Assembly: GCA_963700155.1 (NCBI GenBank)
Contig: OY969472.1
Coordinates: 176,271-240,270 of the forward strand
Reading direction: 5' to 3'
DNA length: 64,000 nt
From: an uncultured bacterium
GTDB taxonomy: Bacteria > Patescibacteriota > Dojkabacteria > J137
The notes below the pieces were generated by a model that was not told where the DNA came from, did no database searches, and saw only the letters and a program-made list of their open reading frames with translations. This document shows, piece by piece, positions 12,081 through 42,406 of this stretch (position 1 is its first letter; every line of letters starts with the position of its first letter). A program made the translations under genes and the position numbers.

Positions 12081-15000
12081 TTAATTTATTATTAAGTAGT
12101 CTATTTTAACATCAGTTTCTTGAGCTTTTTCAATTTCTATTGTAAAGCCTTGTCCAGGAATAATAGATTTTACTATTGGAAGTACAAATTGATTACTCGT
12201 TAGTTGTATATGAGAATCTTCTGTAACAGAAGTATTGTCAACTGTGATTTCAGTCTCTCCAGAAGCAATATTTGCTTGTCCAATGCTAGAGTTTGGTCCG
12301 GATTTAAGTGTTAATTTACCATTAGTATCTACACCTAAAAGTGTGTTACCACCAGCATCTAATAATTTAAATGCATTTTCATTTGAAACGATTTGCATTG
12401 TTAAATCAAATCCGGAAATATTTGTATATGATTTTGCTTCAATTGAATTATTTACAGAAAGTACTTTGTCTAATGATAATTTAGCATCAGAAATCTTTAG
12501 TAATTGTTCAAGTGGTGTAGACCCAGATTCAGAGTTAGGATTTAAATCATTATTTACTGCTAAACCATTACCAAGATAATTTAAATTTACAAACATTGTT
12601 ACTTCTCCGATACCTTGATCATCAAAATTAGTTAATGCCATTCCAATTGCTAAACCTGAGCCTTTTGATTTCATAGCTACCCCAGGTGTTGAAGAAGGGG
12701 CTAAATAATCTCCAGCTTCAATTGGTCCGTTTTCTGTTGTAACTTTAACCGGGACTCTCCCTGACAAAGCTACTGGAACTATTGAACCATTACCTAAAGT
12801 TTTACCATCATCAAGAACCATTCCAGGTCTTGTTGAAACTACTCCTAATACTTTTGCATCATCAGTTCCCTGACTTTTTCTAACCCCAAGTTCTAGTGTT
12901 GGATCTATTGAAACTACCTCACCTAAATTCAAATTATCAGTTGTAGGATAAATTTCTGCCAAGTCAGCACCTGAGGCTGCAATTTCCTGAATTGTTAACA
13001 TAACCTCATCTATTGTTGCATTATTTCCAAAAGAACCATTGGTATCCCTGGTTGAAGCACAAACAGTGTATGTTTGAGGTGAAGTCGAAGCTGGTGAATC
13101 AATTACCGTGAATGGTATCCAAATCTGCTGTATTGGATCAGTCATTGCTGCAACAAAATCATTACCGATTTGTAATCCTGAACAGTTTCCACTTCCTCTT
13201 CTGACTCTAATTCTGACTGCAGTTTCAGTATCATCTCCTCCAGAAGGATTGGTATATTCAATAGCTCCAGTAATTAATATTCTTTGTGATGTATTGTCAG
13301 GACTAATTGTTGGATTTGTTGGAGTTAATACTTCAATTTCTGTCCCCCATGTTGGACTAGTTCCCGGTGTTGGTGAGGTAATACTTGAATCATCTACAGA
13401 TTCTGTTGACGAATTTGCTGCAGGATTTGAATTAGCTCCACCACTAGTTCCGATAACAAGTGCCTCTAGTCCCCAGTCATAAATATTAGTGTCACCTGCT
13501 GCTACAGAAGCACAAAGTGAGTAACTCTGCGCAGAATTTCCTGGATTTGATGCAACACCATAAATATGAAGATTACCTACAGGAGTTGTGTTACTATTAT
13601 TTGTTGATATTGTATATGTAACTGTAGCATTTCCTACTGTTGTACCTGAACAGTTATTAGTTGTTTCAATTGTTAAAGTAAATGGCTGGTCAGTATTATT
13701 ACCACTATGTAAATCTGCAAAACCTGAGACATAAACATCATCTGTAGTAGAACCTGGAGTTACAGAAACAGTACCTAATGTTGTTTGTGAAGAACTTGAA
13801 ATGTTTATAAAGCTATCACTTGTCTTGTATGCTGCATCGTGCTGTAGATTTATTCCTGTTCCTCCGATACAATTTGTCCAAGCCCCATTTTCATAACATC
13901 TAAATTTGTTAGTATTTGAATTATAGTAAATTGCACCGTTGGTGCCGGTGGGGTCGCCAGAGGTATTTTTGACATCAACTTTCAATAAATCCGGAGTTGC
14001 TGAACCAGAACCACCGGCACCAATCTGTACTGATCCAGTAGTCCCGGTTCCTGCTACCTGTAAATTAATATTTCCTGTTCCAGATTGAATTGTTGTTGTT
14101 GATGTTGATGTTGCTGAACCAAGCACTAATGTTTTTGCTGCAGCACCAGTTCCTACATTTATTGTTTCAGCACTTGCATCTCCACCAATTGTAATCGAGC
14201 CTGTAGTCCCAGACTCTATTGTTAAAGCTCTTGCAGCAGCAGTTGTAATATCTGTTCCAATTGTCCCGTTAAATTGTATCCCATTTGTAACTGTTCCTGC
14301 AGTTCTAGTAATGTTTAAAGCATTCGTAAGAGTTCCACCGGTAGTTTGATTAATCAACAAAGCATTAGTCAATGTTGTAGTACTTGTTAAGACTTCCGAA
14401 GTCCCAGCAATTGTTGTAAATGCTCCAGTAGATGGTGTTGTAGTACCTATTGCTGTTCCGTTTATTCCGGTTGAGGTAGTATTAATATTCGATGATGTTA
14501 ATGTTAACAAGTTTGCTCCAGTTGATATACTTGAAGCTGATAAACCTGAAAGTGCTAATGCTCCTGATGTTGATGTTAGATTGATAGCACCTGTTGTAAC
14601 TGTAAGACCAGTTGCAAATGTTGGATTTGAAACTGTCGCAAGTGTTATTGTTCCAGACCCGTTATTTGTTGTTGTTATATTTGTACCTTGTGCTAGTAAT
14701 AATGTTCCACCTTGGGATATCGTGCTATTTGTTCCGCTAGATGCTGAAGCAGTAAATATGCTGCCTCCAGATGTTAAACAAGTTGCACAAGTTAATGTTA
14801 ATCCAGCACCACCTAATGTTGCTGAACCCCCTCCTCCTAATGGTCCAGTAGTCCCTATAGTTACACTTGAATTTGCAAGTTGTGAATTTGTTATTCCTGC
14901 TGTTGCAGAAAGATTTGTTGTTGTTAGTCCTGAAATTGCAACATTAGCAGCAGCTGTTAACCTTCCTTGAGCATCAACTGTGTAAGTTGGGATATTTGTT

Positions 15001-18000
15001 GCACTTCCATAACTTCCTGCGGATACTGCAGTATTAGCTAAGTTTATAGTTGCTGATCCTCCTAACGCTAATGGTGAACCCCCTGTTATACTTATACCTG
15101 TTCCATTATTTAGAGTTACACTTGAATTTGCAAGATTAGCATTTGTTATTCCTGCACTTCCTGACAGATTGGAATTAGTTAATCCTGTTATTGTATTTGA
15201 ACCAGCTGCAATAGTTTTATTTGTTAGTACATCAATCGATGTAGGAGTAATATACCCTGCATCATTTGTCCATTGAGAAATATTTGCTGAAGTGAAGTTT
15301 GATGTTGTTAATCCTGAAATAGCAACACTTGCAGCGGCAGTTAACCTACCTTGAGCATCAACTGTAAATGTACCAATTGTTGAACCACTTCCATATGATC
15401 CTGGGGTAACAGTAGTATTTGCAATATTAATCGTTACAGTACCACTTCCATTATTAACTGTTGTGATTCCTGTACCTTGTGCTAAGGTAAGCGTTCCCCC
15501 ATCTGAAATTGTAGAATCAGAACCAGAACCTGCTGTAAGAGTAAACGATCCACCTCCGCTGGAACCTATGCAATCAACCCAGGAACTATTTTCAAAACAT
15601 CTAAATTTATCATTTGTAGTATTATAATAAATTCCACCGTTTGCCCCTGTAGGATCATTTGTCCCATTATCCAATACTAGTAAATCAGGAGTGTCTGTCC
15701 CACTATTCCCAATTAGAACCTGGCCGCTAGAACCAGTACTTCCAATTGTAAAATTTGCATTACCTGTACCTGATTTGATATTTAATGCTGTTGTAGTTGT
15801 ATTATTGCCTATTGTTATAGTTTTTGCATTTGTACTTGTTCCCAAATTTACCGCCCCTGTTGTACCTGAATCTAAAGTTAAGGCAGTTGCATTACCTGAT
15901 TTAACCGTTAAAGCTCCTCCTCCTGTGACAATTGCTCCTGCAGCTCCTAAATTAATCGCTGTAGCTGCTCCACCAACATTTAGTGTAGTAACATTTGTAT
16001 TGAATAAGTTTGCATTAGTAGCAGTTGTTGTTAAATCACCACCATTAACTCCAATATCACCTGCTGTAATAATGTTAAAGGCTCCAGTCTGATTCCAATC
16101 TTCAGTTAAATCTCCAAGGGAGACTGTATTTCCACTATTATTAAGTCCACTTGCAAAAGTAAAACTTGCGTTAGCTGAAAGTTGTACCCATCCACCAATA
16201 TGTGTTGAATATGTATATGAGATATCATGGTAAGCACTATTAGTATTTCCTACATAAAGTGCATCATTGTTGTTTGGAGATTCTGTTGTATATGTAAAAC
16301 TTCCTGGAGAACCACCAGAGATATGAATTTGATAATCTTTAAGTCCGGAAAGTGAACCTGCAGGAGTTGTACTTGAATTAAATGCAACTCCAAAACTATC
16401 ACCAACTGTTAGTGACTTTATTAAGACCCAAGTTGGATCTTGATATTGAACAAGATCACCAGGTGCAAATCCTGACCATACTCCTGTATTTCCACCAGTA
16501 TTAATCAAATAAGTATCATTATTTACTGGTGATCCAGGAGGAGTGCTTGCATCCTCTATTACATTTATTTCTTCTAACGGGTTATGCCATACAAGACCTG
16601 TAGCAATGTTATCAACATAAGTTTTTACAGCATTTTGAGTAGGATATAAAACGTCTGATGTTCCTAATGTTGTTGATGTCGATTTATTAGCAACATTTTC
16701 AGGGGTAAAGCCTAAAGCATCTTGCTTTCCATTAAACGTATTCCAGTCAGTTGATGTTAAAAATCCTGTTAAGGTAGAACTGGCAGCTTGGTCACCATCA
16801 TAATTCAGTGAAATAGCACCACTAGAATCAATAGTAGCATCTCCACTCAGAACCCTAGTAACCCAAGATGTACCGCTTCCAATTAATAAATTACCAGCAG
16901 TTGGAGTTGTTAAACCTAAAGTATTCCCATTAATCTTAGCTACAGTTGTAGCACCTTGTGTTCCTGTAACATCTCCGGCTAATGAACCTGTAAAATTTGT
17001 TGCAGATGTAGCTGTCGAAGCATTCCCTGAGACATCTATTGAATAGGTACCTGTGTTTATAACAGTGGAATAATTTCCAGCAGTAAGATTTGTTGCTGTT
17101 AAATTTGTTATTGTATTAAGTGATGCATTAATAGTTTTATTAGTTAATTCTTGTGTTGAACTTGCAGTGACATAACTAGAATCATTTGTCCATTGTGAAA
17201 TATTTGAAGATCCAAAATTGCTTACTGTTAAACCAGATATCCCAACATTACTTGCAGCAGTTAGTCTACCTTGAGCATCAACTGTATAAGTAGGAATAGT
17301 CGCTCCACCACCATAACTTCCAGCTGTCACAGTTGTATTTGCTAGGTTAATTGTTATTGTGCCTGATCCGCCGTTTACAGTTGTAATACCTGTGCCTTGT
17401 GATAATGTTAATGATCCCCCCTGTGATATGGTACTGTTGCTTCCACTACTAGCTACCGCAGTAAATAGGCTTCCTCCACTAGTTATACATGTAGTACAAG
17501 TTAATGTTAATGCAGAACCTCCAAGAGAAACTGACCCACCTCCTCCGAGTGGTCCAGAAGTATTTACAGTTACACTCGAATTTGCTAATTGAGAATTTGT
17601 TATTCCAGCTGTACCTGAAAGGTTTGTTGTTGTTAAACCTGCAATTGCTGTATTACTTGCAGAAGTTAACCTACCTTGCGCATCCACGGTAAATGAAGGC
17701 ACAGTAGTTCCACTACCATAACTCCCCGCAGTAACTAAAGTATCAGATAGATTAACCGTTGCTATACCTCCAAGAGCTAATGAACTACCTCCAGTAACAC
17801 TAATTCCTAAACCACTGTTTAATGTCACATAAGGAGTTGCTAAATTAGCATTTGTTATTCCCGCACTTCCAGATAAACTCGTATTAGTTAATCCCCCAAT
17901 TGCTACATTACTGGCTGAAGTCAACCTTCCATAAGTATCAACAGTAAATACTGGTACAGAATTCGAAGTCCCATAAGTAGCTGCAGTAATTCCTGATGGA

Positions 18001-18659
18001 CTTAACGCTGAACAAGATGGACAATCAATTGTTAATGAACCACCCAAACTAACTGAACCACCACCGGTTATTGGTCCTGATGTTTTTATATTTAAACTAG
18101 AATTCGCCAATTGTGAATTGGCTAACCCGAAAATACTATTTTGATCAAAATTTGAACCATTACCATTTGCTCCAACTATAGCAATGTCTCCAATATTAGT
18201 TCCGGGTACTCTTCCTTGAAGATACTCAGCATTTAAATTATTAATCAGACCAGTATCAGGGATTATAAGATATGAACTAGAAATAAGCTTAAGTGGTACT
18301 GTTGGGCTAAGTGTACTTGTTGGAGTTTCAGACTGTTGGCCACTATTATTACTTCCAAACCCACCTGTTCCTCCTGTACCCCCAGTCCCTCCATTATTAT
18401 TTGAAGAGCTTCCAGATGGATTAATCTGTAATACCTGGTTTGTATCTAATATAGTAACTTTTGTAACTTGATTGTAAGCATCTGGATTTACTGGTTTAAG
18501 CAAATCTAAAGATACTCTTCCAACAGGTTGAAATATACTTTGCAAAAAAGATGGCTGCTGCTCTTCAACACCATTTGTAACACCACCATTAGTATAGCCA
18601 AGTAAGTCAGAAGTTTGAGTCTGGGAAGAAATTAAACAATAAAAATAATAACAGTACAA
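12081..18659 (-). CDS. Giant (>=2192 aa) Gly/Thr/Ser/Asn-rich repeat protein, adhesin- or fibre-like. The start is probably wrong and it is likely fused to 18607..18978 by a +1 frame change.
   Basis: At least five copies of an approximately 100-aa module (..SGSAGITNANLANSSVTLN.G.GISITGG..LALGG.ATINLANT.V.AGSYGS...IPTYTVDAQGRLTAA.NVAISGLTT.N). Two copies of a G.IYYN..N.KFRC(F/Y)EN..W..CIG motif resembling phage tail-fibre-type repeats. A non-repetitive C-terminal domain. The track start is a TTG, and no Met occurs in the first roughly 700 residues. No signal peptide. Confidence 0.75.
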   Translation of the reverse strand: MYCYYFYCLISSQTQTSDLLGYTNGGVTNGVEEQQPSFLQSIFQPVGRVSLDLLKPVNPDAYNQVTKVTILDTNQVLQINPSGSSSNNNGGTGGTGGTGGFGSNNSGQQSETPTSTLSPTVPLKLISSSYLIIPDTGLINNLNAEYLQGRVPGTNIGDIAIVGANGNGSNFDQNSIFGLANSQLANSSLNIKTSGPITGGGSVSLGGSLTIDCPSCSALSPSGITAATYGTSNSVPVFTVDTYGRLTSASNVAIGGLTNTSLSGSAGITNANLATPYVTLNSGLGISVTGGSSLALGGIATVNLSDTLVTAGSYGSGTTVPSFTVDAQGRLTSASNTAIAGLTTTNLSGTAGITNSQLANSSVTVNTSGPLGGGGSVSLGGSALTLTCTTCITSGGSLFTAVASSGSNSTISQGGSLTLSQGTGITTVNGGSGTITINLANTTVTAGSYGGGATIPTYTVDAQGRLTAASNVGISGLTVSNFGSSNISQWTNDSSYVTASSTQELTNKTINASLNTITNLTATNLTAGNYSTVINTGTYSIDVSGNASTATSATNFTGSLAGDVTGTQGATTVAKINGNTLGLTTPTAGNLLIGSGTSWVTRVLSGDATIDSSGAISLNYDGDQAASSTLTGFLTSTDWNTFNGKQDALGFTPENVANKSTSTTLGTSDVLYPTQNAVKTYVDNIATGLVWHNPLEEINVIEDASTPPGSPVNNDTYLINTGGNTGVWSGFAPGDLVQYQDPTWVLIKSLTVGDSFGVAFNSSTTPAGSLSGLKDYQIHISGGSPGSFTYTTESPNNNDALYVGNTNSAYHDISYTYSTHIGGWVQLSANASFTFASGLNNSGNTVSLGDLTEDWNQTGAFNIITAGDIGVNGGDLTTTATNANLFNTNVTTLNVGGAATAINLGAAGAIVTGGGALTVKSGNATALTLDSGTTGAVNLGTSTNAKTITIGNNTTTTALNIKSGTGNANFTIGSTGSSGQVLIGNSGTDTPDLLVLDNGTNDPTGANGGIYYNTTNDKFRCFENSSWVDCIGSSGGGSFTLTAGSGSDSTISDGGTLTLAQGTGITTVNNGSGTVTINIANTTVTPGSYGSGSTIGTFTVDAQGRLTAAASVAISGLTTSNFTSANISQWTNDAGYITPTSIDVLTNKTIAAGSNTITGLTNSNLSGSAGITNANLANSSVTLNNGTGISITGGSPLALGGSATINLANTAVSAGSYGSATNIPTYTVDAQGRLTAAANVAISGLTTTNLSATAGITNSQLANSSVTIGTTGPLGGGGSATLGGAGLTLTCATCLTSGGSIFTASASSGTNSTISQGGTLLLAQGTNITTTNNGSGTITLATVSNPTFATGLTVTTGAINLTSTSGALALSGLSASSISTGANLLTLTSSNINTTSTGINGTAIGTTTPSTGAFTTIAGTSEVLTSTTTLTNALLINQTTGGTLTNALNITRTAGTVTNGIQFNGTIGTDITTAAARALTIESGTTGSITIGGDASAETINVGTGAAAKTLVLGSATSTSTTTIQSGTGNINLQVAGTGTTGSVQIGAGGSGSATPDLLKVDVKNTSGDPTGTNGAIYYNSNTNKFRCYENGAWTNCIGGTGINLQHDAAYKTSDSFINISSSSQTTLGTVSVTPGSTTDDVYVSGFADLHSGNNTDQPFTLTIETTNNCSGTTVGNATVTYTISTNNSNTTPVGNLHIYGVASNPGNSAQSYSLCASVAAGDTNIYDWGLEALVIGTSGGANSNPAANSSTESVDDSSITSPTPGTSPTWGTEIEVLTPTNPTISPDNTSQRILITGAIEYTNPSGGDDTETAVRIRVRRGSGNCSGLQIGNDFVAAMTDPIQQIWIPFTVIDSPASTSPQTYTVCASTRDTNGSFGNNATIDEVMLTIQEIAASGADLAEIYPTTDNLNLGEVVSIDPTLELGVRKSQGTDDAKVLGVVSTRPGMVLDDGKTLGNGSIVPVALSGRVPVKVTTENGPIEAGDYLAPSSTPGVAMKSKGSGLAIGMALTNFDDQGIGEVTMFVNLNYLGNGLAVNNDLNPNSESGSTPLEQLLKISDAKLSLDKVLSVNNSIEAKSYTNISGFDLTMQIVSNENAFKLLDAGGNTLLGVDTNGKLTLKSGPNSSIGQANIASGETEITVDNTSVTEDSHIQLTSNQFVLPIVKSIIPGQGFTIEIEKAQETDVKIDYLIIN

Positions 18660-18978
18660 TTATTATGTATATTAACGCGATTATTCCTAGAATAATCGCG
18701 GCTTTCTTTAGTCTCTTTAAAAGCTTAACTGTTCTTCTCTCCATCTGAAAATCTGCAAGTTTTGCGCGCTCTGCAATAGAAATTCCTTTATTTGCATTAA
18801 TTCTGGCAATATCTTCTTTTGTACTAACATGCATTCCTTGCAAAGTTAATTCTCTTAATTCTTTTACACTAATTCCTAACAATCTTGCTGCTTCTTCTTC
18901 AGGGAGACTTAGATTATTGTTTTGTCTAGAAGTTGGGTTATTATTTAATTGATTTTTTAAATTTGAAGTTTGTTCCAT
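18607..18978 (-). CDS. Small protein with an HTH-like segment and a C-terminal TM helix. Probably the true N-terminus of the giant protein.
   Basis: Starts at an ATG. EEAARLLGISVKELRELTLQGM is helix-turn-helix-like. The C-terminal AAIILGIIALIYIIIVLLLFLLFNFF is a TM. Its last 53 nt overlap the giant ORF in another frame. Confidence 0.55.
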   Translation of the reverse strand: MEQTSNLKNQLNNNPTSRQNNNLSLPEEEAARLLGISVKELRELTLQGMHVSTKEDIARINANKGISIAERAKLADFQMERRTVKLLKRLKKAAIILGIIALIYIIIVLLLFLLFNFFPDSNF

Positions 18979-19106: not shown

Positions 19107-19529
19107 CTACATATTATCCTCAGTTTTTTTTTCTTCCTGGTCTAAGTTTTTCTTTTCATCATCTAATAACTTTTTGACCATTTGAAAAATGACCTCGAGA
19201 CTTGAATTTGCTTTTTCCAGAAAATATGAAGGGTGATCTTTTATGGCCTCAGTAATAATGCTAGTATCAGGCTCTAAGTTGGTAAGAATAATTACTTTAA
19301 CTTTTGAACCAAATTCCTCATCTGCCCTTAAATCAGTCAACATTTTCATACCATCCATTTCTGGCATTAATATGTCAGTTATAATTAAATCAGGATGTTG
19401 CTTTAAAGCTATATCTAAACCTACCTTGCCATTTTCAGCAGTCATAACTTCATAACCTAAATCTTTTAAACCATTTTCAAGCACCTCACTTAAAGAAAGT
19501 TCATCTTCAACAACTAATATTCGCTTCAT
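19107..19529 (-). CDS. Single-domain response regulator (CheY-like receiver)
   Basis: ILVVEDE...DLIITDILMPEMDG carries the phospho-acceptor Asp. ILTN and a downstream Lys follow. There is no output domain. Confidence 0.85.
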   Translation of the reverse strand: MKRILVVEDELSLSEVLENGLKDLGYEVMTAENGKVGLDIALKQHPDLIITDILMPEMDGMKMLTDLRADEEFGSKVKVIILTNLEPDTSIITEAIKDHPSYFLEKANSSLEVIFQMVKKLLDDEKKNLDQEEKKTEDNM

Positions 19530-19643: not shown

Positions 19644-20420
19644 TTAAACCTTTTGATATGTGGTTGAGAAATTAGCCGAAGTGACAAAGCTTTGACTATC
19701 TGAATTATATACTGCAATCTTACCTGCATCACTAAAAATAACGATTATGTCATTTTTTCTAGCCAGTTTATAAAATTCTTTATTTGATTCACTTTGATTT
19801 CTTAATTGATCAGGATCAGCTATAACAGACAACTGAGGTATTTCATTAGAATCTTCAGAAATCAGTTTTTCAGATTTTGCTAATTTAATTATATTATTAA
19901 CAAGAATTTGTTGATTGTTTTTCTCAATAATACTAGGACTATCACCTTCATAAATAACTTTTCCCTCATCTTTTCGATAGATTATTATATTATCATTGTA
20001 AACAAGTACAATATCTCCATTTTTCGCATCTTTATATACTTGCTCATTTATAACATTGGAAGATTTCAATTGATCAATATCTGAAACTGTAGCAACTACA
20101 GGAATCTCTGTATCTGGATATTTGTTTTTAGCCTTAGAAAGAACTTCATTTATTAATAACTGATTTTGTATATTTTTAAAAAACTCAATTGGATTATATA
20201 CCGATAGGAGTGTGATTACTTGTAGCACAATAATTATAAACAACAGTCCCTTAAGAGTTCGAAGTTTAATTAAATTCTGTTTAATATTAACTTTTGAGAG
20301 ATTTAAATGAAATCTATTCTTATATTCTAAATTTTTTGATTGTTTGTCTATAGGTGTTGATTTGTATTTTAAGTTTTTTCCCAAAGTCTTAAATTCGCTT
20401 TTTATATTTGTTTTGATCAT
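19644..20420 (-). CDS. Hypothetical single-pass membrane protein with two copies of the domain found in 11581..12030
   Basis: The track ORF extends to 20477 but overlaps tRNA-Leu. It is trimmed to the ATG at 20418-20420 (MIKTNIK...). TM is LLFIIIVLQVITLLSV. Repeats are VATVSDIDQLKSS...GDIVLVYNDNIIIYRK and LSVIADPDQLRN...NDIIVIFSDAGKIAVY. Confidence 0.55.
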   Translation of the reverse strand: MIKTNIKSEFKTLGKNLKYKSTPIDKQSKNLEYKNRFHLNLSKVNIKQNLIKLRTLKGLLFIIIVLQVITLLSVYNPIEFFKNIQNQLLINEVLSKAKNKYPDTEIPVVATVSDIDQLKSSNVINEQVYKDAKNGDIVLVYNDNIIIYRKDEGKVIYEGDSPSIIEKNNQQILVNNIIKLAKSEKLISEDSNEIPQLSVIADPDQLRNQSESNKEFYKLARKNDIIVIFSDAGKIAVYNSDSQSFVTSANFSTTYQKV

Positions 20421-20437
20421 CAGCTTTGAAAAATATA

Positions 20438-20519
20438 TACCGAGGGAGGGACTCGAACCCTCACACCCTAAGGGCAAAGGATTTTAAGTCCTTCGTGTCT
20501 ACCATTCCACCACCTCGGC
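20438..20519 (-). tRNA. tRNA-Leu (anticodon TAA), type II with long variable arm, no encoded CCA
   Basis: Reverse complement is GCCGAGGTGGTGGAATGGTAGACACGAAGGACTTAAAATCCTTTGCCCTTAGGGTGTGAGGGTTCGAGTCCCTCCCTCGGTA. It has a 7-bp acceptor stem, anticodon loop CTTAAAA, a long variable arm, the GGTTCGAGTCC T-loop and discriminator A. Confidence 0.9.
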
Positions 20520-20582
20520 ATAAAATAAATTTGCGAAGAAATTATAACTATAAATTCAAAAACTTTCCATAAGATTATTTAA

Positions 20583-21659
20583 CTATCTTTCTCGAAATTT
20601 ATATGCTGGAAGATTTTGATCTTTTATATCGATTTGGTAAGTGTGGAATTTGTAATTTGGATGCTGTATAGAAACATTATATTTCCCAATTGGGATTTCT
20701 TGTTCAGAGAATCTACCATCTTGTGAACTTACTGCTTGAAAAGTTGAGTTATCTTCAAGATTTGTAAATGTAATTGATGCTTGAGAAATTGGATTATCTC
20801 TTTTATCTACAATAACTCCAAATACATTTTTTGTAGTTTTTACTACTGGAGTTACAACCATTCCGCTATTTCTTCCTATAGTTGATTGTATAGGATGATT
20901 TTGAGGATATTGCTGATTATTCATATTAATCAACTTAATTTCGCTATAAAGATCATTAATTCGAGAAAGAATTTCCTGTTCTTTTGGTTTATTATTTGTA
21001 TCTTTATTTAATCTTGACAATTCATATTTTAGTTTATTAATCTCGTTTTGGTAATCCTGAATTGAAATTGGTCTTGTCTGTTGTTGTTTATTAATAGTTT
21101 GTTGAAATTGTTGTTGGTTTTGTATCTGAGGAAGGGCTTTTTGTTGAATATTTCCTGAAAACTCTTGAGAGTATAATCTATCCAAGTTGGATTTCCTTAC
21201 TGGGTCACTTTCAAATGGAGTCTCAAGTTCAGTATATTCTTCAGGTTCTGCCTTTGAACTAAAAAGCTTGTCTAATGGAATTTTTGTTATATCAATTTTT
21301 TCCTCATTTTTCATCGAAGATACTTTTTGAGATTTTTTCACTTCTTTCTCTCCTTTTGCTTGTAATAGTTCTGGTGTAGATTCTTTCTTCATCCATACGT
21401 ATCTTGGTGAAATGAAAATTGACTTAATAAATCCAAACAACCAAACTCCAAAATTTTCATTAAGTGCAATTAAAATTCCTATTGCAACTGATAATAATAT
21501 TAGTGGTATTTTTATTAAAAGAGGGATGATCGGAAGCAAATAGATTACTACACCAACTAAACAACCAATAATAATCTTTGAAAACTGTTTTAAAGTAAAG
21601 CTTCCAAAAAGTTTAAATTCTACATCAATTATATTTTGTGGTACTGGATGTTGTTCCAA
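20583..21659 (-). CDS. Hypothetical membrane protein with a Gln-rich linker and a C-terminal carboxypeptidase-regulatory-like beta domain
   Basis: Two N-terminal TM helices, a Q/N-rich low-complexity middle, and a C-terminal VIVDKRDNPISQASITF...GKYNVSIQHPNYKF. Confidence 0.45.
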   Translation of the reverse strand: MEQHPVPQNIIDVEFKLFGSFTLKQFSKIIIGCLVGVVIYLLPIIPLLIKIPLILLSVAIGILIALNENFGVWLFGFIKSIFISPRYVWMKKESTPELLQAKGEKEVKKSQKVSSMKNEEKIDITKIPLDKLFSSKAEPEEYTELETPFESDPVRKSNLDRLYSQEFSGNIQQKALPQIQNQQQFQQTINKQQQTRPISIQDYQNEINKLKYELSRLNKDTNNKPKEQEILSRINDLYSEIKLINMNNQQYPQNHPIQSTIGRNSGMVVTPVVKTTKNVFGVIVDKRDNPISQASITFTNLEDNSTFQAVSSQDGRFSEQEIPIGKYNVSIQHPNYKFHTYQIDIKDQNLPAYKFRER

Positions 21660-22453: not shown

Positions 22454-22975
22454 TTAAGATAGAATTATTTTAAAGGCTTCATTAAGGTAGTTAATTTCAC
22501 TATTTGAGTAACTTCTTTTTTTAAGCATTTCAATAACTTGTGCTACCAAGGATCTTATAAGTTCGTTAGACTTATAGAGATCTGATAAGGCGTATCGTGC
22601 AGATGATACAACACTCCTATATAAAATTTTTGTACTTTCATCAGTTTCCATAGAGCCAGGGACAATAACCTCAAGTAGAGCAAAAATTAACAAAATAGCA
22701 ATATTCTCAACTTGAGGTTTGAGAGTTTCGTTACTTTCTAAACTCACTTTTGAATCCTTTACAAGGTCAGCTTGTTCTTTTAGTTCACCTATAGCTAATA
22801 TTAAACTTCCGTTATGCTCTTTTTCTAGACCTTCTACCATTTTATTTAGCCTTTTTACATCCAACCAAGGGGAAAATAATTCATCTACAATTACAGTTTT
22901 ATACTCATTAAAATTCCTTTTCTCTTCACTTTCTCTAAATAATTTCATAAATAACAAAACTAAGGTAAAAGCCAT
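22454..22975 (-). CDS. Hypothetical protein
   Basis: ORF only. Overlaps the upstream gene by 16 nt, consistent with co-transcription. Confidence 0.45.
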   Translation of the reverse strand: MAFTLVLLFMKLFRESEEKRNFNEYKTVIVDELFSPWLDVKRLNKMVEGLEKEHNGSLILAIGELKEQADLVKDSKVSLESNETLKPQVENIAILLIFALLEVIVPGSMETDESTKILYRSVVSSARYALSDLYKSNELIRSLVAQVIEMLKKRSYSNSEINYLNEAFKIILS

Positions 22976-24810
22976 TTAAATCCTAGCAGATTTTCTAAGA
23001 AAGTGTCTAGTCCAGATGGAGTTTTGTTTTTTCTTTGTCGATTTGAGGTTGAATTATTATTAATTTCAAGTTCATATTTATTTTTCAGGTCGTTCAAAAC
23101 CCCCTTATCATAAGCATCTTTGATTACATTCCCATTCATACCACAGTTAGGGCAATTTTGATCCAAGTCGCAAACATCTATCGATCCTTCTCCACAAATT
23201 GGACATTTTATATGTCTCTCAACTTTTTTAGTCTCTTTATTATATTTATCAAAGAACTCAAGAATCTCACCTTTCTTCCCAATTACTTTATCAAAATTGC
23301 CCACAAGAGTATTATTACCAACGCTTTGACTATTTCGAGATTCTGAATTTTCAGACGCTGGTAAAGTTTTATTTTCAGAATTAATATTTTTTATTTGAAT
23401 ATTTACAACACCACATTCTGCCCCTTCTGAAATCTCAGAAATATTAACTTTTCCATCTTTAGAATTTTTACCAACATCAGTATTTTGGGATACGAAACCA
23501 GAAACTGTATTACCTGAGACTACACTTTGTAATAAGTTAGAATTGATTTTATCTTGATCCTCAATAGATATATTTTTATGTTTTGGCATATAAGTCATCC
23601 AAGCTGCATCAAGAACTTGTTGATATCTTTCTGAGAATTTTTGTAATTCAGTTGAATTTAAAGCAGCATTAGGAAGATTTGCCATAAGACTCTGTATAAA
23701 TGGATGAATAGTTAAGCCGATTGCATCTATTTTTGGTTTTATTAAATCATCATTAAGTCTCAAAATATCTAGTCCCCCTAAAGAATTTATTAAATTTAGT
23801 CTTTCGAGCAAATCTTCTTCTTCTATTCCCCTGATAATAAAAGTTTCGGATAAAATCTTATTTTGTGAAGATTTTAAGTTCCCAGTTTGAGTGGCAATCG
23901 AGAGTTCTCGCAGATTTTGTAGATCAAAAGCAAGTGCCTCTAGATTATTTGGCAATGAAAAGATTCTCGATTGCCACCCGTTTTTTGAATATTTATAAAT
24001 TCTCAACATAATATCCTTTTGATGTTTATAAATTGGTGGACTAAATTCAATAAATAAATCACCATTTTGAATTTGGACATCTTTCAATCCAGAGAGCTGT
24101 GAATATAAATAATTCAAGGTATTGCTATCAAAATCTTCTTCTAACAACAAGTTCAAAAGTTCTTCAGAATTTTTATATTTTAATTCCCATAATTTTAATA
24201 AATTCAAAAGTTCTACTAACTCTCTTTCATTATGTTTTACAGTAAAACACCTTATAGCAGAATCAATCATCATTTTATGTTTTTTTTGATCAAAATCGTT
24301 TTTAAAAATTCTTCCTCGCAGACTATTTTTATTCATAAATCTATTAAATTTATTTACTGTCTCACCTGAATAATTTTCTAAAATTTGATATGAATCCGCA
24401 TCTTTTAAAATAGATTCAAAATCATATAGCTTGCCTTCTTTTAGCTGAGTAAGAATATCCTGTTCAATTTGAGAATAAATTTCCCAGTAGCTTTCTGAAA
24501 TATTTAAATATTTTAACTTATCTTTGAAATTCAATTTCGATAAGTCAGCTGAATTTTCTAAAAGCTTTGACCAATAATCCCATTCAGAAAAAATATTTAT
24601 TAAATCTTCTAGTGAAAGTTCACTATTTCTAAAGTTATCTCCTAAAATTTGCAACAATAATCTGAATTTATCTTTTATAGATAAGGATAAACTATATCCT
24701 TTATCTTTAATTTCGAATGACTCTTCATATGTAGGTTTTAACCTTTGTAAAAAAGATTCAATGTATCTATCTAATAATGTAGAATTATCTACTGATTCAA
24801 CAAATTCCAT
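22960..24810 (-). CDS. Hypothetical 616-aa protein with a C-terminal Cys4 zinc-ribbon
   Basis: Long helical, Leu/Asn-rich ORF. The C-terminal CPICGEGSIDVCDLDQNCPNCG is a zinc-ribbon. Confidence 0.5.
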   Translation of the reverse strand: MEFVESVDNSTLLDRYIESFLQRLKPTYEESFEIKDKGYSLSLSIKDKFRLLLQILGDNFRNSELSLEDLINIFSEWDYWSKLLENSADLSKLNFKDKLKYLNISESYWEIYSQIEQDILTQLKEGKLYDFESILKDADSYQILENYSGETVNKFNRFMNKNSLRGRIFKNDFDQKKHKMMIDSAIRCFTVKHNERELVELLNLLKLWELKYKNSEELLNLLLEEDFDSNTLNYLYSQLSGLKDVQIQNGDLFIEFSPPIYKHQKDIMLRIYKYSKNGWQSRIFSLPNNLEALAFDLQNLRELSIATQTGNLKSSQNKILSETFIIRGIEEEDLLERLNLINSLGGLDILRLNDDLIKPKIDAIGLTIHPFIQSLMANLPNAALNSTELQKFSERYQQVLDAAWMTYMPKHKNISIEDQDKINSNLLQSVVSGNTVSGFVSQNTDVGKNSKDGKVNISEISEGAECGVVNIQIKNINSENKTLPASENSESRNSQSVGNNTLVGNFDKVIGKKGEILEFFDKYNKETKKVERHIKCPICGEGSIDVCDLDQNCPNCGMNGNVIKDAYDKGVLNDLKNKYELEINNNSTSNRQRKNKTPSGLDTFLENLLGFKWLLP

Positions 24811-25010
24811 TCAATTTGAATTATATTTATTCATGCTCGTGAACTCTCTATCGAGAATGCAGAAATTTGCTGGTATCCGGACTTTCAAAAATGATTACCG
24901 TTGCGGCACAGTGAAGGATTTTCACCTTCTTCCCCAGCGCCTATCATCTAAGTTTAGACTTCGGCTTCTGTGATATAAACAATAGTTTAAATTTTAAAAA
25001 TATTCAAGAA

Positions 25011-39756: not shown

Positions 39757-40635
39757 TCAATTAGTCCGACGCCTGATCATCTCCAGTACTTGTTGGGCTT
39801 GATATGTAGAACAGGATGGGGTAAGCCCCCATACATGAGTATTGTCGTCTGTCAGGTATATAGGTTCACGGGTAAGCCAGGCGTTCGAATATAAGCCATT
39901 TCGCACTACAATCATCCACTCTCCTTCTGTTGGAAGAAGTTGTTTCGACATTAGCCCATCGGTGTCAAAGAGTGGAGTCCAGTATCCGCCTGGACCATTC
40001 TTAATCTGACCTGCGACTTCACCATTGATCTTATAAATGACTTCTCCGAAGTCGCAGAACGGGACATCCTCACCAGGGCTTGGTGCCACATAGTCGGACG
40101 TCTTGTCGAAATCCACCCACACTGACGCTTCAGAGCCATCAATTCCGACCCGGACAGCGTTACCCTCGCAGGATTGCACTGTGGTGTCGTAACCAATGAC
40201 CGAGATCCCCGCTTCAAGCTGAAGCTGGGAGTCAAGATAAATCTCGACGCTCGGCGGAACGCGAATCGGATTATCGATAGCGCAATGCCTTACTGTCTCC
40301 TGCACTCCGCCAAGTTGATCAGTGTAGCTGGAGGTTTCATCGAAATCCGCCAAGTCTACCCACACACCAGCATCCACACTAGCTACTGATCTATCGTGGA
40401 AAATGACAAGAGCTGCATTTCCCTGGCATGCTCTAACTTCACCATCGAAGCCAGCGATCAAGGATCCAGCACTAACTTGAAGCTGAGAGTCAAGGTAAAG
40501 TGCAGTACCTGCTGGAACATGAATCGAGGGGAGTCCTGTGACACAGTAACGCTGATGAACATCCTGCCCAAGAGCAGGCTGAATCAGTCCGATAGTGAGC
40601 AATACGCCCACGAATATTACCACTAATTTCTTCAT
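39757..40635 (-). CDS. Secreted protein, paralogue 1 of a three-member family (two internal about 70-aa repeats plus a shared C-terminal domain). GC-rich.
   Basis: Signal peptide MKKLVVIFVGVLLTIGLIQPALGQ. Internal duplication YCVTGLPSIHVPAGTALYLDSQLQ... and HCAIDNPIRVPPSVEIYLDSQLQ.... C-terminus GEWMIVVRNG...HVWGLTPSC...VLEMI is shared with paralogues 2 and 3. Confidence 0.7.
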   Translation of the reverse strand: MKKLVVIFVGVLLTIGLIQPALGQDVHQRYCVTGLPSIHVPAGTALYLDSQLQVSAGSLIAGFDGEVRACQGNAALVIFHDRSVASVDAGVWVDLADFDETSSYTDQLGGVQETVRHCAIDNPIRVPPSVEIYLDSQLQLEAGISVIGYDTTVQSCEGNAVRVGIDGSEASVWVDFDKTSDYVAPSPGEDVPFCDFGEVIYKINGEVAGQIKNGPGGYWTPLFDTDGLMSKQLLPTEGEWMIVVRNGLYSNAWLTREPIYLTDDNTHVWGLTPSCSTYQAQQVLEMIRRRTN

Positions 40636-40724
40636 TTCCGGTCTCCAGTATATTATGATTTTGCAGCTACGCTTATAAAGGACGCTACTTACCCTCAGTC
40701 TTTAAAGTTCGAGCTCGTTCAGCT

Positions 40725-40782
40725 TTAAAGATGCGCAAACTAACCTCATTTTATTTTTAAAGTCAGTTTGCGCATCTTAAAG
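40725..40782. promoter_or_regulatory. Large palindromic operator-like element upstream of paralogue 1 (TTTAAAGATGCGCAAACTAAC ... GTCAGTTTGCGCATCTTAAAG)
   Basis: A roughly 21-bp inverted repeat around a 16-nt AT spacer. It is related to the elements upstream of paralogues 2 and 3. Confidence 0.55.
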
Positions 40783-40942
40783 TACAAACTCAAGCAATAA
40801 TTAGCAAGGTTGTTAATGAACTGTAAAACTAACAAATGATTAGAATTTACAAGGGGATTATATCATGGTGATATACTTATGTCACATTAAAGTATCATAG
40901 GTACTTATTTAGGAAGGAATTAAGGAAGTTAGATTAGGTTCA

Positions 40943-40980
40943 GGCGCGGCGTTAAACGCCGCGCCTTCTCAACCTTGCTA
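40943..40980. repeat. Cassette-2 3' element: GGCGCGGCGTTAAACGCCGCGCC hairpin plus AACCTTGCTA
   Basis: A perfect 9-bp GC stem with a 5-nt loop. The IR partner AGCAAGGTT is at 41554-41562. Confidence 0.85.
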
Positions 40981-40981
40981 G

Positions 40982-41389
40982 CTATCCTAGGAAAATCCCG
41001 ATGAGATGAAGTAACCAAACGAGAAACTCGAGCTGCGGTTTTACGCACCCAATTGAATAGGTCCAAACCCTTGAGCCAGGTTTGACACTATCATATGGGG
41101 TTGCTGATACTTCGGCAGTGCTGAACAGTATTCGATCATTATGCAATCTTGCTACGATTAACCACTGCCCCGAAGGATTTACAAATATTGCTCCTCCGTT
41201 ATCAGTACTTAGCGAATCGAAGTACCATCCATTACTCATTGGTACCTGACGAAGCCCTTTTATTAGAATGCACTCAGTCACTCCAAGTGACATCCCCGAG
41301 CTGGAGCTATCGGCGAGAGCTGGGATAATTTGCAGTCCCAGCAATCCAATGAGCAATATGCTCACTAAGAATAATGGAATTCTATTCAT
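40982..41389 (-). CDS. Secreted protein, paralogue 2 (135 aa), GC-rich
   Basis: Signal peptide MNRIPLFLVSILLIGLLGLQIIPALA. GQWLIVARLHND...RVWTYSIGC...LEFLV aligns with the shared C-terminal domain. Confidence 0.65.
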   Translation of the reverse strand: MNRIPLFLVSILLIGLLGLQIIPALADSSSSGMSLGVTECILIKGLRQVPMSNGWYFDSLSTDNGGAIFVNPSGQWLIVARLHNDRILFSTAEVSATPYDSVKPGSRVWTYSIGCVKPQLEFLVWLLHLIGIFLG

Positions 41390-41476
41390 TCTACCTCCAT
41401 TACAAGCTACTGCAGCTTCGCTAACTCAAGGATGCTGCTACCCTTATCATCAAGTACTGAGCTCATTCGGACTCGA

Positions 41477-41524
41477 TGACGCGCAAAGTAACTTAAAATT
41501 TAATTATCGTCACTTTGCGCGTCA
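41477..41524. promoter_or_regulatory. Palindromic operator-like element upstream of paralogue 2 (TGACGCGCAAAGTAAC-N16-GTCACTTTGCGCGTCA)
   Basis: A 16-bp IR with one mismatch. Near-identical copy at 42479-42526. Confidence 0.6.
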
Positions 41525-41553
41525 CCAATCTTAAAATTTTCAAGGATATTATC

Positions 41554-41650
41554 AGCAAGGTTATCAGTAATCTTTCATAGCTTTCGCATATGATTTTGAT
41601 TACTAACAACATTAATCCCATAAGTGGGATTGCTGTTATTAATGTGCTTA
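41554..41650. repeat. Conserved about 100-nt AT-rich structured block (AGCAAGGTTATCAGTAATCTTTCATAGCTTTCGCATATGATTTTGATTACTAACAACATTAATCCCATAAGTGGGATTGCTG...)
   Basis: Repeated at 42555-42660 with a few substitutions. Contains AGTAATC/GATTACT and AATCCCA/TGGGATT hairpins. Confidence 0.8.
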
Positions 41651-41750
41651 TAATACTATTATACACTAAGAGATTATTTTATATAATATAAGAAGTATAT
41701 AAGGATTTTAAAGATATCTATATTTATTTGAAAGTTATCAGGCGCGGCGT

Positions 41751-41782
41751 TAAACGCCGCGCCTACATCGATAACCTTGCTA
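41751..41782. repeat. Cassette-3 3' element: GGCGCGGCGTTAAACGCCGCGCC hairpin plus AACCTTGCTA (overlaps the stop codon)
   Basis: As for cassettes 1 and 2. The IR partner CATAGT..TAGCAAGGTTAT is at 42543-42566. Confidence 0.85.
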
Positions 41783-42406
41783 ACTATGCATAATCTCCAA
41801 GATGTGATCAAGATCCCCCTGATCACACCCATTGTTCAGCGCCCAGACGTGGGCGCCGAAAATCGAGCTGACGAACGTGTAATTGACAAACCGAGCGGTC
41901 TGCCAGAGATCGTTGCCTTCAGGTCCTTTGTCCACTACTAAGAGCAGTTGCCCGTAATAGTGGAGATCAGTCGAGGGATGAACAAAGACGATTCCTCCTT
42001 GATTAGTCTCACGACCGGCATGATAATCTCCGTCACCGATGGCGTCGCCGCCAAAAACCTTCTGAATACGGCAGATCGGGCGAGTAACTTGCGGTCCATC
42101 AGGCATAATTGAGCCTTCAAAGATGGAATTCCTTATATCATCAACCGCAACCCATAACCGATGATCGGAGCCGTGAATACTGATCTCTGCTGAATCGATG
42201 TCATCTGCGCAAGTATTCACAACAGCACCAAATCCTTCCGTTGTCAGACCATATTGTTCGGTCCGACCCGCGTCATTGAATAGCCAGGTGCCTGGCTGGA
42301 CAATTACGTAGCCATTCGTACATGCCACATTTTCTTGCCCGATGGCTGGCGTAACCAGCATGGCTGAAAGGACAATGAACACAATGAACAGAACTAGCTT
42401 CTTCAT
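41780..42406 (-). CDS. Secreted protein, paralogue 3 (208 aa), GC-rich
   Basis: Signal peptide MKKLVLFIVFIVLSAMLVTPAIGQ. The C-terminus GQLLLVVDKG...HVWALNNGC...ILEIM aligns with paralogues 1 and 2. Confidence 0.7.
   Translation of the reverse strand: MKKLVLFIVFIVLSAMLVTPAIGQENVACTNGYVIVQPGTWLFNDAGRTEQYGLTTEGFGAVVNTCADDIDSAEISIHGSDHRLWVAVDDIRNSIFEGSIMPDGPQVTRPICRIQKVFGGDAIGDGDYHAGRETNQGGIVFVHPSTDLHYYGQLLLVVDKGPEGNDLWQTARFVNYTFVSSIFGAHVWALNNGCDQGDLDHILEIMHS

Follow-up and report, generated by a model that had tools for sequence, protein, structure and literature searches.

A giant phage-fibre-like open reading frame of a Dojkabacteria genome as the likely extracellular part of a membrane-anchored surface fibre

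We analysed a stretch of 64,000 nucleotides (nt) from the genome of an uncultured bacterium (GTDB lineage Bacteria; Patescibacteriota; Dojkabacteria; J137; assembly GCA_963700155.1, contig OY969472.1, positions 176,271 to 240,270 of the forward strand), which is referred to as the window throughout. It contains a giant open reading frame (ORF) on the minus strand (12081..18659), which is open in a single frame and is listed with 2192 codons. We consider it likely that this ORF encodes the extracellular portion of an adhesive surface fibre that is anchored in the membrane and probably trimeric, in a bacterium from the candidate phyla radiation (CPR). This reading is based on the identities of the modules, on what the chaperone and tip domains are homologous to and how they are predicted to fold, on the cellular context of the gene and on the single-ORF architecture that is found in its relatives.

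Results and discussion

Cellular context and composition

The fibre gene is a chromosomal gene of a CPR bacterium and lies outside any prophage or tailocin locus, since its neighbours are housekeeping genes and none of the 10 ORFs flanking it matches a phage structural family of the PHROG collection. The flanking genes encode polynucleotide phosphorylase, the CCA-adding enzyme, peptide deformylase, a response regulator, a PrgI-family protein, RadC, MurJ and threonyl-tRNA synthetase (ThrRS). The fibre gene and the ThrRS gene are both located on one single Patescibacteria contig of 1.14 Mb, all best named matches of the ThrRS are from Patescibacteria and the named relatives nearest to the giant protein belong to Candidatus Dojkabacteria; the GC content is ~30% for the window, within a range of 30-38% for the genome. 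Threonine, glycine, serine and asparagine together account for ~50% of the residues of the giant protein. Its 14 genuine cysteines form seven local pairs (residues 213/216, 388/391, 1021/1030, 1291/1294, 1588/1597, 1670/1716 and 1826/1867), and such complete pairing is what an extracytoplasmic protein would be expected to show.

Tip domains, auto-chaperone and end domain

The reading made from the sequence alone had assigned a single non-repetitive end domain of about 150 amino acids (aa) to the protein; instead, the non-repetitive C-terminal part comprises ~590 aa (aa 1603-2192) and is composed of four domains. The first two of these are tip domain 1 (aa 1603-1745; 13425..13853, minus strand) and tip domain 2 (aa 1757-1897; 12969..13391, minus strand), which are paralogous, as a joint hidden Markov model covers both of them over their full length. 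Both are predicted to be beta-sandwiches with the TNF/C1q-like jelly-roll fold when modelled as monomers with AlphaFold2 (AF2), with a predicted local distance difference test (pLDDT) score of ~85 for tip domain 1 and of ~55-81, mostly 70-80, for tip domain 2. Further fold matches of the tips include BclA, ExsFA and Pgp3, the tail-fibre domains of cyanophages A4 and A-1(L) and the tip of the Bdellovibrio fibre Bd2734. In relatives of the giant protein, at least three distinct tip types are present in front of the domain that follows.

This third domain, the ADLAE domain (aa 1898-2032; 12564..12968, minus strand), is, by profile and predicted fold, probably an auto-chaperone of the phi29 gp12 type (Peptidase G2-like). 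A profile made from 22 CPR ADLAE segments matches the C-terminal fragment of phi29 gp12 (3gqh_A, E 1.2e-4), the full-length gp12 (6qz9, 3.2e-4) and the "chaperon domain D4" of Dpo31 (9e-4). In the alignment, the Asp of the motif falls on the first residue of the C-terminal phi29 fragment (Asp692 in the full-length chain of gp12); the residues A, D, A and E are invariant across the 22 sequences and correspond to the S|DFAE boundary of phi29, and the alignment thus predicts A1898|D1899 as the scissile bond. The D and E of the phi29 boundary are reportedly the catalytic pair (MEROPS G2; Xiang et al. 2009). Structure prediction of the C-terminal domain, which the sequence-only reading had proposed as a check, gave a confident AF2 model of the ADLAE domain (pLDDT 89.5, predicted TM-score 0.82): its best Foldseek matches in the PDB are 3suc and 3gqh (E ~4e-4, TM-score 0.59 on the query), with trimeric phage cement proteins ranking next, so that the modelled domain is predicted to adopt the fold of the C-terminal domain of phi29 gp12. 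Matches of the ADLAE domain to jumbo-phage virion proteins were also obtained by tblastn. The C-terminal domains of phi29 and K1F are auto-chaperones that drive folding of the trimer and are then cut off (PMC3357383), and Dpo31 D4 has the same fold, begins at an Asp and is cleaved (PMC13317679).

The S74 intramolecular chaperone had been reported absent from the sequence alone, and this is borne out: no SD.RLK-type motif was found in the giant protein by regular expression, and no Pfam match to S74 was obtained even at E<=10 on segments. The same expression matches in 17 of the related proteins scanned, and the sister proteins P0006, P0007, P0010 and P0025 possess an S74 chaperone at the equivalent position. 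By profile and model, the slot that S74 occupies in these sister proteins thus appears to be filled by a different intramolecular chaperone, of the phi29/G2 type. A subtype of the ADLAE domain, reading ADLAEW/Y..GDII..GVVSDTA..PGWYDP, is found as a second, internal copy in P0012, P0014, P0022, P0026, P0042 and P0055; in P0012, P0014, P0022 and P0026, more than 1000 aa of fibre are located behind the internal copy.

The fourth domain is a small terminal beta domain that follows after a linker (aa 2123-2182; 12114..12293, minus strand) and resembles K1-lyase_C (PF24146; 25.8 bits, E 1.5e-5, with a cut-off of 27). At the corresponding end of homologues, H_lectin (PF09458) was detected in P0002 (27.7 bits) and P0005 (25.6 bits) with a cut-off of 24. 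Comparisons of the K1-lyase_C-like and H-lectin-like end domains by HMM and with hhalign did not show the two to be related, the latter giving a probability of 49% over only 24 columns.

N-terminal cassette and frame junction

The N-terminal cassette of the fibre gene is found in an upstream ORF of 123 aa (18607..18978, minus strand), which combines a helix-turn-helix (HTH), a basic stretch and a transmembrane (TM) helix and overlaps the giant ORF in a different frame (window 18607-18659). The HTH, expected to be cytoplasmic, covers approximately aa 25-48 (nt 18835-18906, minus strand) and falls below the threshold of HTH_17 (PF12728) in this ORF (14.9 bits, E 0.033, cut-off 27); the homologous N-terminus of P0007 scores 28.2 bits, and PF12728, PF00376 and PF13411 are precomputed annotations in about a dozen related giant proteins. 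The TM helix (approximately aa 92-116; nt 18631-18705, minus strand) is preceded by the basic stretch RRTVKLLKRLKK, and these basic residues imply a topology of the cassette with the N-terminus inside and the C-terminus outside.

At the junction of the two ORFs (18618..18624, minus strand), which reads "cca g act", the reading changes from frame A (..FNFFP) to frame B (TQTSDLLGY..), the two being set apart by one extra base. Deletion of one base at 18621-18624 brings back the one-chain arrangement of all close homologues and yields a fusion that matches P0004 without a gap across the junction (E 4e-54, 268 columns): the window then reads FFPTQTSDLLGY where P0004 reads FFPLQTAIWLGY, and over a longer stretch ..FNFFPTQTSDLLGY.. 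is aligned with ..FIFFPLQTAIWLGY... In 15 of 120 homologues, each a single ORF, residues ~7-124 can be aligned with the 123-aa ORF, and the proteins whose first ~120 residues match the cassette include P0002-P0008, P0011-13, P0015, P0025, P0028 and P0054. The giant ORF has its first ATG only at codon 1839, and no Shine-Dalgarno sequence was found for its TTG start candidates. Because of the single-ORF homologues, the gapless match of the repaired fusion and the lack of a credible start of its own, the true gene would be one of HTH, TM helix and fibre: in this ancestral arrangement translation probably starts at the upstream ATG (18978), and ~2180 residues would be extracellular. A phmmer search with the 123-aa ORF against 1.84 billion representative sequences returned 9 matches, and the HTH-TM cassette appears as a small subfamily at this single-sequence sensitivity.

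Directly behind the TM helix lies a conserved juxtamembrane region (aa 14-130; 18270..18620, minus strand) that can be aligned to P0004 and includes "LQSIFQPVGRVSLDLLKPVNP". It contains a short (GGT)n run of Gly-X-Y type (nt 18345-18398), and collagen (PF01391) is found at the corresponding position in P0006, P0007 and P0010.

The extra base at the junction may be either an assembly indel or a very recent inactivating mutation; old decay of the gene is disfavoured because the 6.6-kb frame is still open in an AT-rich genome. Programmed +1 frameshifting was rejected, as there is no slippery site and a stop codon follows 12 nt downstream. We also rejected the idea that the gene has been split repeatedly at its TM helix: the ORF of P0009 spans the TM helix and is interrupted by a TAG elsewhere, P0125 is probably cut by the end of its contig and P0122 looks like an assembly artefact. 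The TAG of P0009 is located in frame at codon 8 of the N-terminal HTH (L001 3677-3700; ..ITAE*AAKLL..), and the cytoplasmic cassette is thus damaged in two members of the family.

Stalk modules and repeats

Between the juxtamembrane region and the tips, the giant protein is built from repeated and non-repeated stalk segments. At least five VDAQGRLT modules had been counted by the sequence-only reading, and five VDxxGRLT modules are indeed present (aa 240, 325, 460, 1100 and 1228), four reading VDAQGRLT and one VDTYGRLT; the two G.IYYN..N.KFRC(F/Y)EN..W..CIG motifs that it had described were found at aa 1008 and 1575. The regularity of ~100 aa that it ascribed to the modules did not hold up: VDxxGRLT modules are spaced by 85-135 aa, and windowed blastp self-comparison resolves the repeats into two permuted super-blocks, with aa 254-526 resembling aa 1061-1340 and aa 924-1035 resembling aa 1476-1602.

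Repeat block A (aa 178-560; 16980..18128, minus strand) comprises three VDxxGRLT modules of DUF5907 type together with CxxC motifs. It is followed by a non-repeated segment (aa 560-860; 16080..16982, minus strand) that carries a "ALGFTPENVANKST..YPTQNAVKTYVDN" motif and a DUF2793-like, phage-tail-fibre-like domain, and by the first G/T-rich segment (aa 860-1045; 15525..16082, minus strand), which is closed by the first IYYN-KFRC-C motif (aa 1008-1036, nt 15552-15638). Repeat block B (aa 1046-1340; 14640..15524, minus strand) contains two VDAQGRLT modules and is paralogous to block A in permuted order, sharing 73-76% aa identity and 68-73% nt identity with it, and leads into the second G/T-rich segment (aa 1340-1602; 13854..14642, minus strand), closed by the second IYYN-KFRC-C motif (nt 13851-13937). 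From their composition, the G/T-rich segments may form beta-helices.

At the DNA level, the long repeats noted around 14920, 15300 and 17220 are present, with copies of 151 nt each at 14901-15051, 15285-15435, 17205-17355 and 17610-17760 plus longer pairs; their supposed near-identity was not confirmed, as identity is 70-76% and the longest exact stretch shared within the giant gene is 21 nt. Nor are they the recombination substrates that had been proposed: Tandem Repeats Finder detected no arrays in the gene, and in the three best repeat pairs, nt identity is 68-73%, identity at third codon positions 47-58% and the same codon is used for only ~51% of the amino acids that are identical. These comparisons give no hint that the copies were homogenised recently. 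The DNA repeats are best read, from their codon usage, as old and diverged duplications that selection at the protein level would have kept alike. Relatives contain between 0 and 18 VDxxGRL-like motifs per protein, and this variation in module number is on an evolutionary scale.

Several stalk modules point to phage fibres. DUF5907 (PF19264) was not matched by hmmscan on the giant protein or on single repeats; the "GSYGS..PTFTVDAQGRLTAA" motif is scored as DUF5907 in the homologue P0018 (143 bits, many copies), which itself matches the giant protein with an E-value of 2e-101. Cyanophage proteins and one annotated as "phage-related tail fiber protein" were weakly matched by the VDAQGRLT repeat, whilst aa 679-840 match a putative tail fibre of Bacillus phage AgentSmith (9e-12, tblastn). 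Six homologues retain the stalk segment of aa 560-860, on which DUF2793 scores weakly (E 0.0019). Searched against the PDB as profiles, neither the VDAQGRLT repeat nor the IYYN motif nor aa 600-860 brought up a relative of solved structure; matches of stalk profiles to CLAMP, a kinase and formylmethanofuran dehydrogenase were dismissed as chance.

In the IYYN-KFRC-C motif, D, P, G, Y, Y, F, R, C, W and C are invariant in 19 instances. Its suggested likeness to the phage side-tail-fibre repeat was not recovered: these 19 instances gave only stray C1q and RIC1 matches against Pfam at E<=1, with no phage fibre repeat among them. In relatives the motif occurs once, directly before the tip domain, and we read it as a family-specific neck that is probably stapled by a disulfide. 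The CxxC motifs CPSC, CTTC and CATC (aa 213-216, 388-391 and 1291-1294; window ~18012-18023, 17487-17498 and 14778-14789) sit at a fixed place in one repeat type (LTLTC.TC.TSGG), for which no relative with a solved structure was found; in a trimer, they may serve in metal binding or form disulfides.

Distribution and two-component neighbours

A scan with one genome per species confirmed at least 513 loci with an ADLAE domain. Taxonomy was read from the titles of the 80 records listed of these loci: most are titled Patescibacteria (Saccharibacteria, Shapiro-, Collier-, Nomura-, Uhr-, Woese-, Gottesman-, Levy-, Moranbacteria and others), and ~17 of the 80 are titled Gammaproteobacteria, Pseudomonadales or Bdellovibrio-like. 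L005, L008, L009, L013, L038 and others with Gammaproteobacteria or Pseudomonadales titles, one of them a 915-kb "chromosome", contain a CPR-type fibre cassette at 50-57% identity, and some of these bins may be mislabelled Patescibacteria. In the 80 loci examined, the ADLAE domain is always part of a large ORF; a lectin-type end domain is present in ~50 of 83 such ORFs and two ADLAE domains in 16 of the 83. The HTH-TM cassette was found in 3 and an upstream receiver gene in 5 of the 80 loci, and both are hence traits of one subfamily only.

In the window, a stand-alone response-regulator receiver gene (19107..19529, minus strand; Response_reg E 6e-21) is located immediately upstream of the fibre gene and in the same direction. 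This arrangement is shared by five loci, namely the window and those of P0009, P0004, P0007 and P0005, with the receivers of the relatives at L001 3180-3554, L002 7386-7895, L084 3529-3897 and L085 3207-3596. A PAS-HisKA(-HATPase) kinase is found beside the receiver in three of the four relatives, being absent at P0007, and the window has the receiver alone. The P0003 locus has two receivers and a kinase nearby on the opposite strand, and in the mis-assembled protein P0122, the receiver is fused to an HTH. An XRE-type HTH gene also often precedes the receiver in relatives. The receiver and the membrane-tethered HTH could together act as a split response regulator and turn the fibre into a transmembrane signalling device, a notion that we hold to be quite unlikely; if it were true, the fibre could couple host contact to gene expression, or its state could be set from inside the cell. 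No precedent for a link between attachment and regulation through a fused HTH and two-component neighbours was found described in the literature.

Comparison with known fibre systems

The nearest characterised analogues are the MAT (mosaic adhesive trimer) fibres of Bdellovibrio, trimers resembling phage fibres that are displayed on the cell surface, have tips of S74, TNF-like or lectin type and aid prey handling (Caulton et al. 2024, PMC10769870). Like them, the giant protein is encoded on the chromosome of a bacterium and would be a surface fibre put together in the manner of phage tail fibres. In each group some members have a chaperone of a self-cleaving type at their end, the predicted tip fold recurs in both, mosaic tips and chaperones are seen among relatives of the giant protein, and a Bdellovibrio "tail fiber domain-containing protein" (P0115) is a distant match of it. 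The differences are these: MAT fibres are ~1000 aa long and possess a signal peptide and a conserved beta-rich N-domain of 130 aa (PMC10769870), whereas the protein described here exceeds 2200 aa and is anchored by HTH and TM helix, followed by another juxtamembrane region, with the MAT N-domain set apart on the basis of its description. Furthermore, the chaperone here is of phi29/G2 type and not S74, the TNF-like domains precede the chaperone and do not replace it, the stalk is made of DUF5907-type and IYYN modules and the host is a member of the Patescibacteria. The giant protein is therefore best seen, by this comparison, as analogous to the MAT family and not as a member of it.

With phi29 gp12 (Peptidase_G2; 3GQH, 3SUC) and Dpo31 D4, the ADLAE domain has similarity in profile and predicted fold, and it shares the D-x-A-E at the N-terminal boundary and the position C-terminal to a (here presumed) trimeric fibre or spike. 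Unlike phi29 gp12, to which sequence identity is ~15%, it is followed by an extra domain, belongs to a cellular, extracellular protein and is in relatives sometimes internal or present twice per chain. S74 fibres and spikes (K1F endosialidase, T5 pb1) likewise have a C-terminal trimerising chaperone behind the receptor-binding part, S74 itself being absent here. BclA and other filaments with C1q/TNF-like tips (Bacillus exosporium nap, Ena tip fibrillum) are alike in having a jelly-roll tip on a long repetitive filament, and collagen repeats are also present in homologues of the giant protein; there is, however, no sequence similarity, stalk and anchoring are different and two tandem jelly rolls plus a chaperone are found here. 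A fibrous surface for host attachment has also been proposed to be made of giant membrane proteins in Vampirococcus lugosii, a predator belonging to the CPR (PMC8080830). These proteins are also giant, membrane-anchored, from a CPR bacterium and proposed to bind the host; compared by description only, they exhibit WD40, PKD, integrin and fibronectin-type domains but no phage-fibre modules or chaperones.

Proposed assembly and alternative explanations

For the fibre we propose the following model, in which trimer formation, cleavage, adhesion and target are inferred. The extracellular chain would be a mosaic of modules known also from phage tail fibres: two duplicated super-blocks of DUF5907-type VDAQGRLT repeats and G/T-rich stretches, each closed by an IYYN-KFRC-C neck, together with the DUF2793-like stalk insert, two TNF/C1q-like jelly rolls, the auto-chaperone and the K1-lyase_C-like (lectin-like) end domain. 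Three chains would be set in register from the C-terminus by the auto-chaperone, and the trimer would fold outside the cell. Cleavage at A1898|D1899 by the conserved Asp and Glu of the ADLAE domain would probably follow, in the manner of phi29 gp12, and the TNF-like domains would then end up as the distal tip that binds the ligand. Such a fibre would recognise and hold the surface of another cell, likely the host of the episymbiont, with tips and chaperone types being swapped among relatives.

A number of observations weigh against this account. The gene as assembled is split by the frameshift and may hence be inactive in this genome. The whole giant protein alone gave nothing above threshold against Pfam, NCBIfam and PDB sequences (against PHROGs, it has one weak match to a family of unknown function), so that the domain assignments are based on profiles from homologues, segment searches, sub-threshold matches or predicted structures: Peptidase_G2 (PF11962) reaches 11.4 bits on the giant protein (E 0.21) and 24.8 bits, with a cut-off of 25, on the internal copy of the homologue P0026. 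The ~160 aa that follow the presumed chaperone, including the lectin-like domain, and the 16 related ORFs with a second, internal ADLAE domain are both awkward for a mechanism in which the chaperone is cleaved and discarded. Release of the phi29 chaperone is also said to use ATP, and ATP is unavailable outside the cell. Finally, neither a description of the CPR fibre family nor experimental data on it were found in the searchable literature (DUF5907, CPR tail-fibre-like proteins).

The ADLAE domain could accordingly remain uncleaved and act as a permanent trimerisation node, the terminal lectin-like domain being the true distal tip. We take this possibility seriously while regarding it as rather unlikely: it would account for the structured domain behind ADLAE here and in ~50 of 83 related ORFs, for the long fibre parts behind the internal copies in P0012, P0014, P0022 and P0026 and for the lack of extracellular ATP for release, and the fold is common to trimeric phage cement proteins that are not cleaved; yet A-D-x-A-E is invariant in 22 divergent sequences exactly at the phi29 cleavage boundary, and sister S74 domains with an apparently intact Ser...Lys occupy the same slot, also with a lectin-like domain behind them. 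A second alternative concerns the gene in this strain, which could be a recently inactivated pseudogene or be in a phase-variable OFF state, the frameshift at 18618-18624 being real and no full-length fibre being made. That the public record calls two ORFs, that the junction is not a long homopolymer and that N-terminal lesions recur, as judged by the in-frame TAG in the HTH of the relative at L001, all speak for this view, which we nonetheless consider unlikely, given that the 6.6-kb frame is open in a genome of 30-38% GC, against long-standing decay, and that single-base indels frequently arise as errors when long reads are assembled; as "CCA G ACU" would not allow re-pairing after a +1 slip, programmed frameshifting is unlikely.

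Two further alternatives concern the function of the protein. Giant repetitive proteins rich in T, G, S and N are able to form surface coats, and the tip-fold matches BclA and ExsFA are spore-coat nap proteins, so a structural envelope or S-layer-like coat protein that binds no other cells can be envisaged; tips are, however, swapped between close relatives, lectin or TNF-like folds typically bind ligands and the Bdellovibrio precedent favours adhesion (PMC10769870), which makes a mere coat very unlikely in our view. The remaining alternative, to which the sequence-only reading had been open, is an unanchored tail fibre of a prophage or tailocin with an unrelated ORF upstream. A relation to fibre or adhesin families, which that reading had made the test of its proposal, is supported by the DUF5907-type motif of the repeats, the match to the AgentSmith tail fibre (9e-12) and the profile match to phi29 gp12; many modules are common to phage fibres and virion proteins, and the giant ORF as assembled lacks a signal peptide. 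The tailocin or prophage part of the proposal fares differently: the neighbours are housekeeping genes, phage structural genes were not found nearby by PHROG matching, a credible start codon is missing from the giant ORF itself, HTH and TM helix are fused in frame in the chain of 15 homologues, and hundreds of CPR genomes carry the family on the chromosome, with a response regulator and a histidine kinase as conserved neighbours. We thus regard such a phage-derived particle protein as highly improbable and favour the membrane-anchored surface fibre.

Other features of the window

Apart from the fibre locus, four observations were made in the window. A cobalamin riboswitch (24851-24999, minus strand; Rfam RF00174, 43 bits) is located directly upstream of an ORF of 616 aa (22960-24810) and one of 173 aa (22454-22975), neither of which has a Pfam or PHROG match; in this CPR genome they may specify a transporter or binding protein with a B12-related role that is not yet characterised. 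The protein at 20583-21659 (minus strand), encoded two genes upstream from the fibre locus, combines a PrgI-family N-terminus with a carboxypeptidase-regulatory-like beta-sandwich, which suggests a component of a type-IV-secretion-like or conjugation-like system. An ORF of 277 aa without family match (19644-20477, minus strand, TTG start) overlaps with its 5' end a tRNA-Leu (20437-20520, minus strand), and therefore either its real start is further downstream or it is not a gene. Lastly, the GC content rises locally up to 0.44 at 40001-42000 against a background of ~0.30, and no rRNA or other Rfam family was found in this stretch.

Implications

How the ultra-small Patescibacteria find and hold their hosts is largely unknown, as stated in work on their type IV pili (PMC12206443). 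The family described here is a very widespread one of giant surface proteins (at least 513 loci) that would reuse the receptor-binding architecture of phages, with a long fibre, swappable tips and a chaperone of either S74 or phi29 type. The family also suggests that the phi29-type auto-chaperone is put to use by cellular proteins outside the cell, and the idea of the MAT fibre in Bdellovibrio may be extended to another predatory or episymbiotic lineage. If the proposed adhesive function is correct, these fibres would be concrete candidates for the determinants of host specificity in CPR bacteria.

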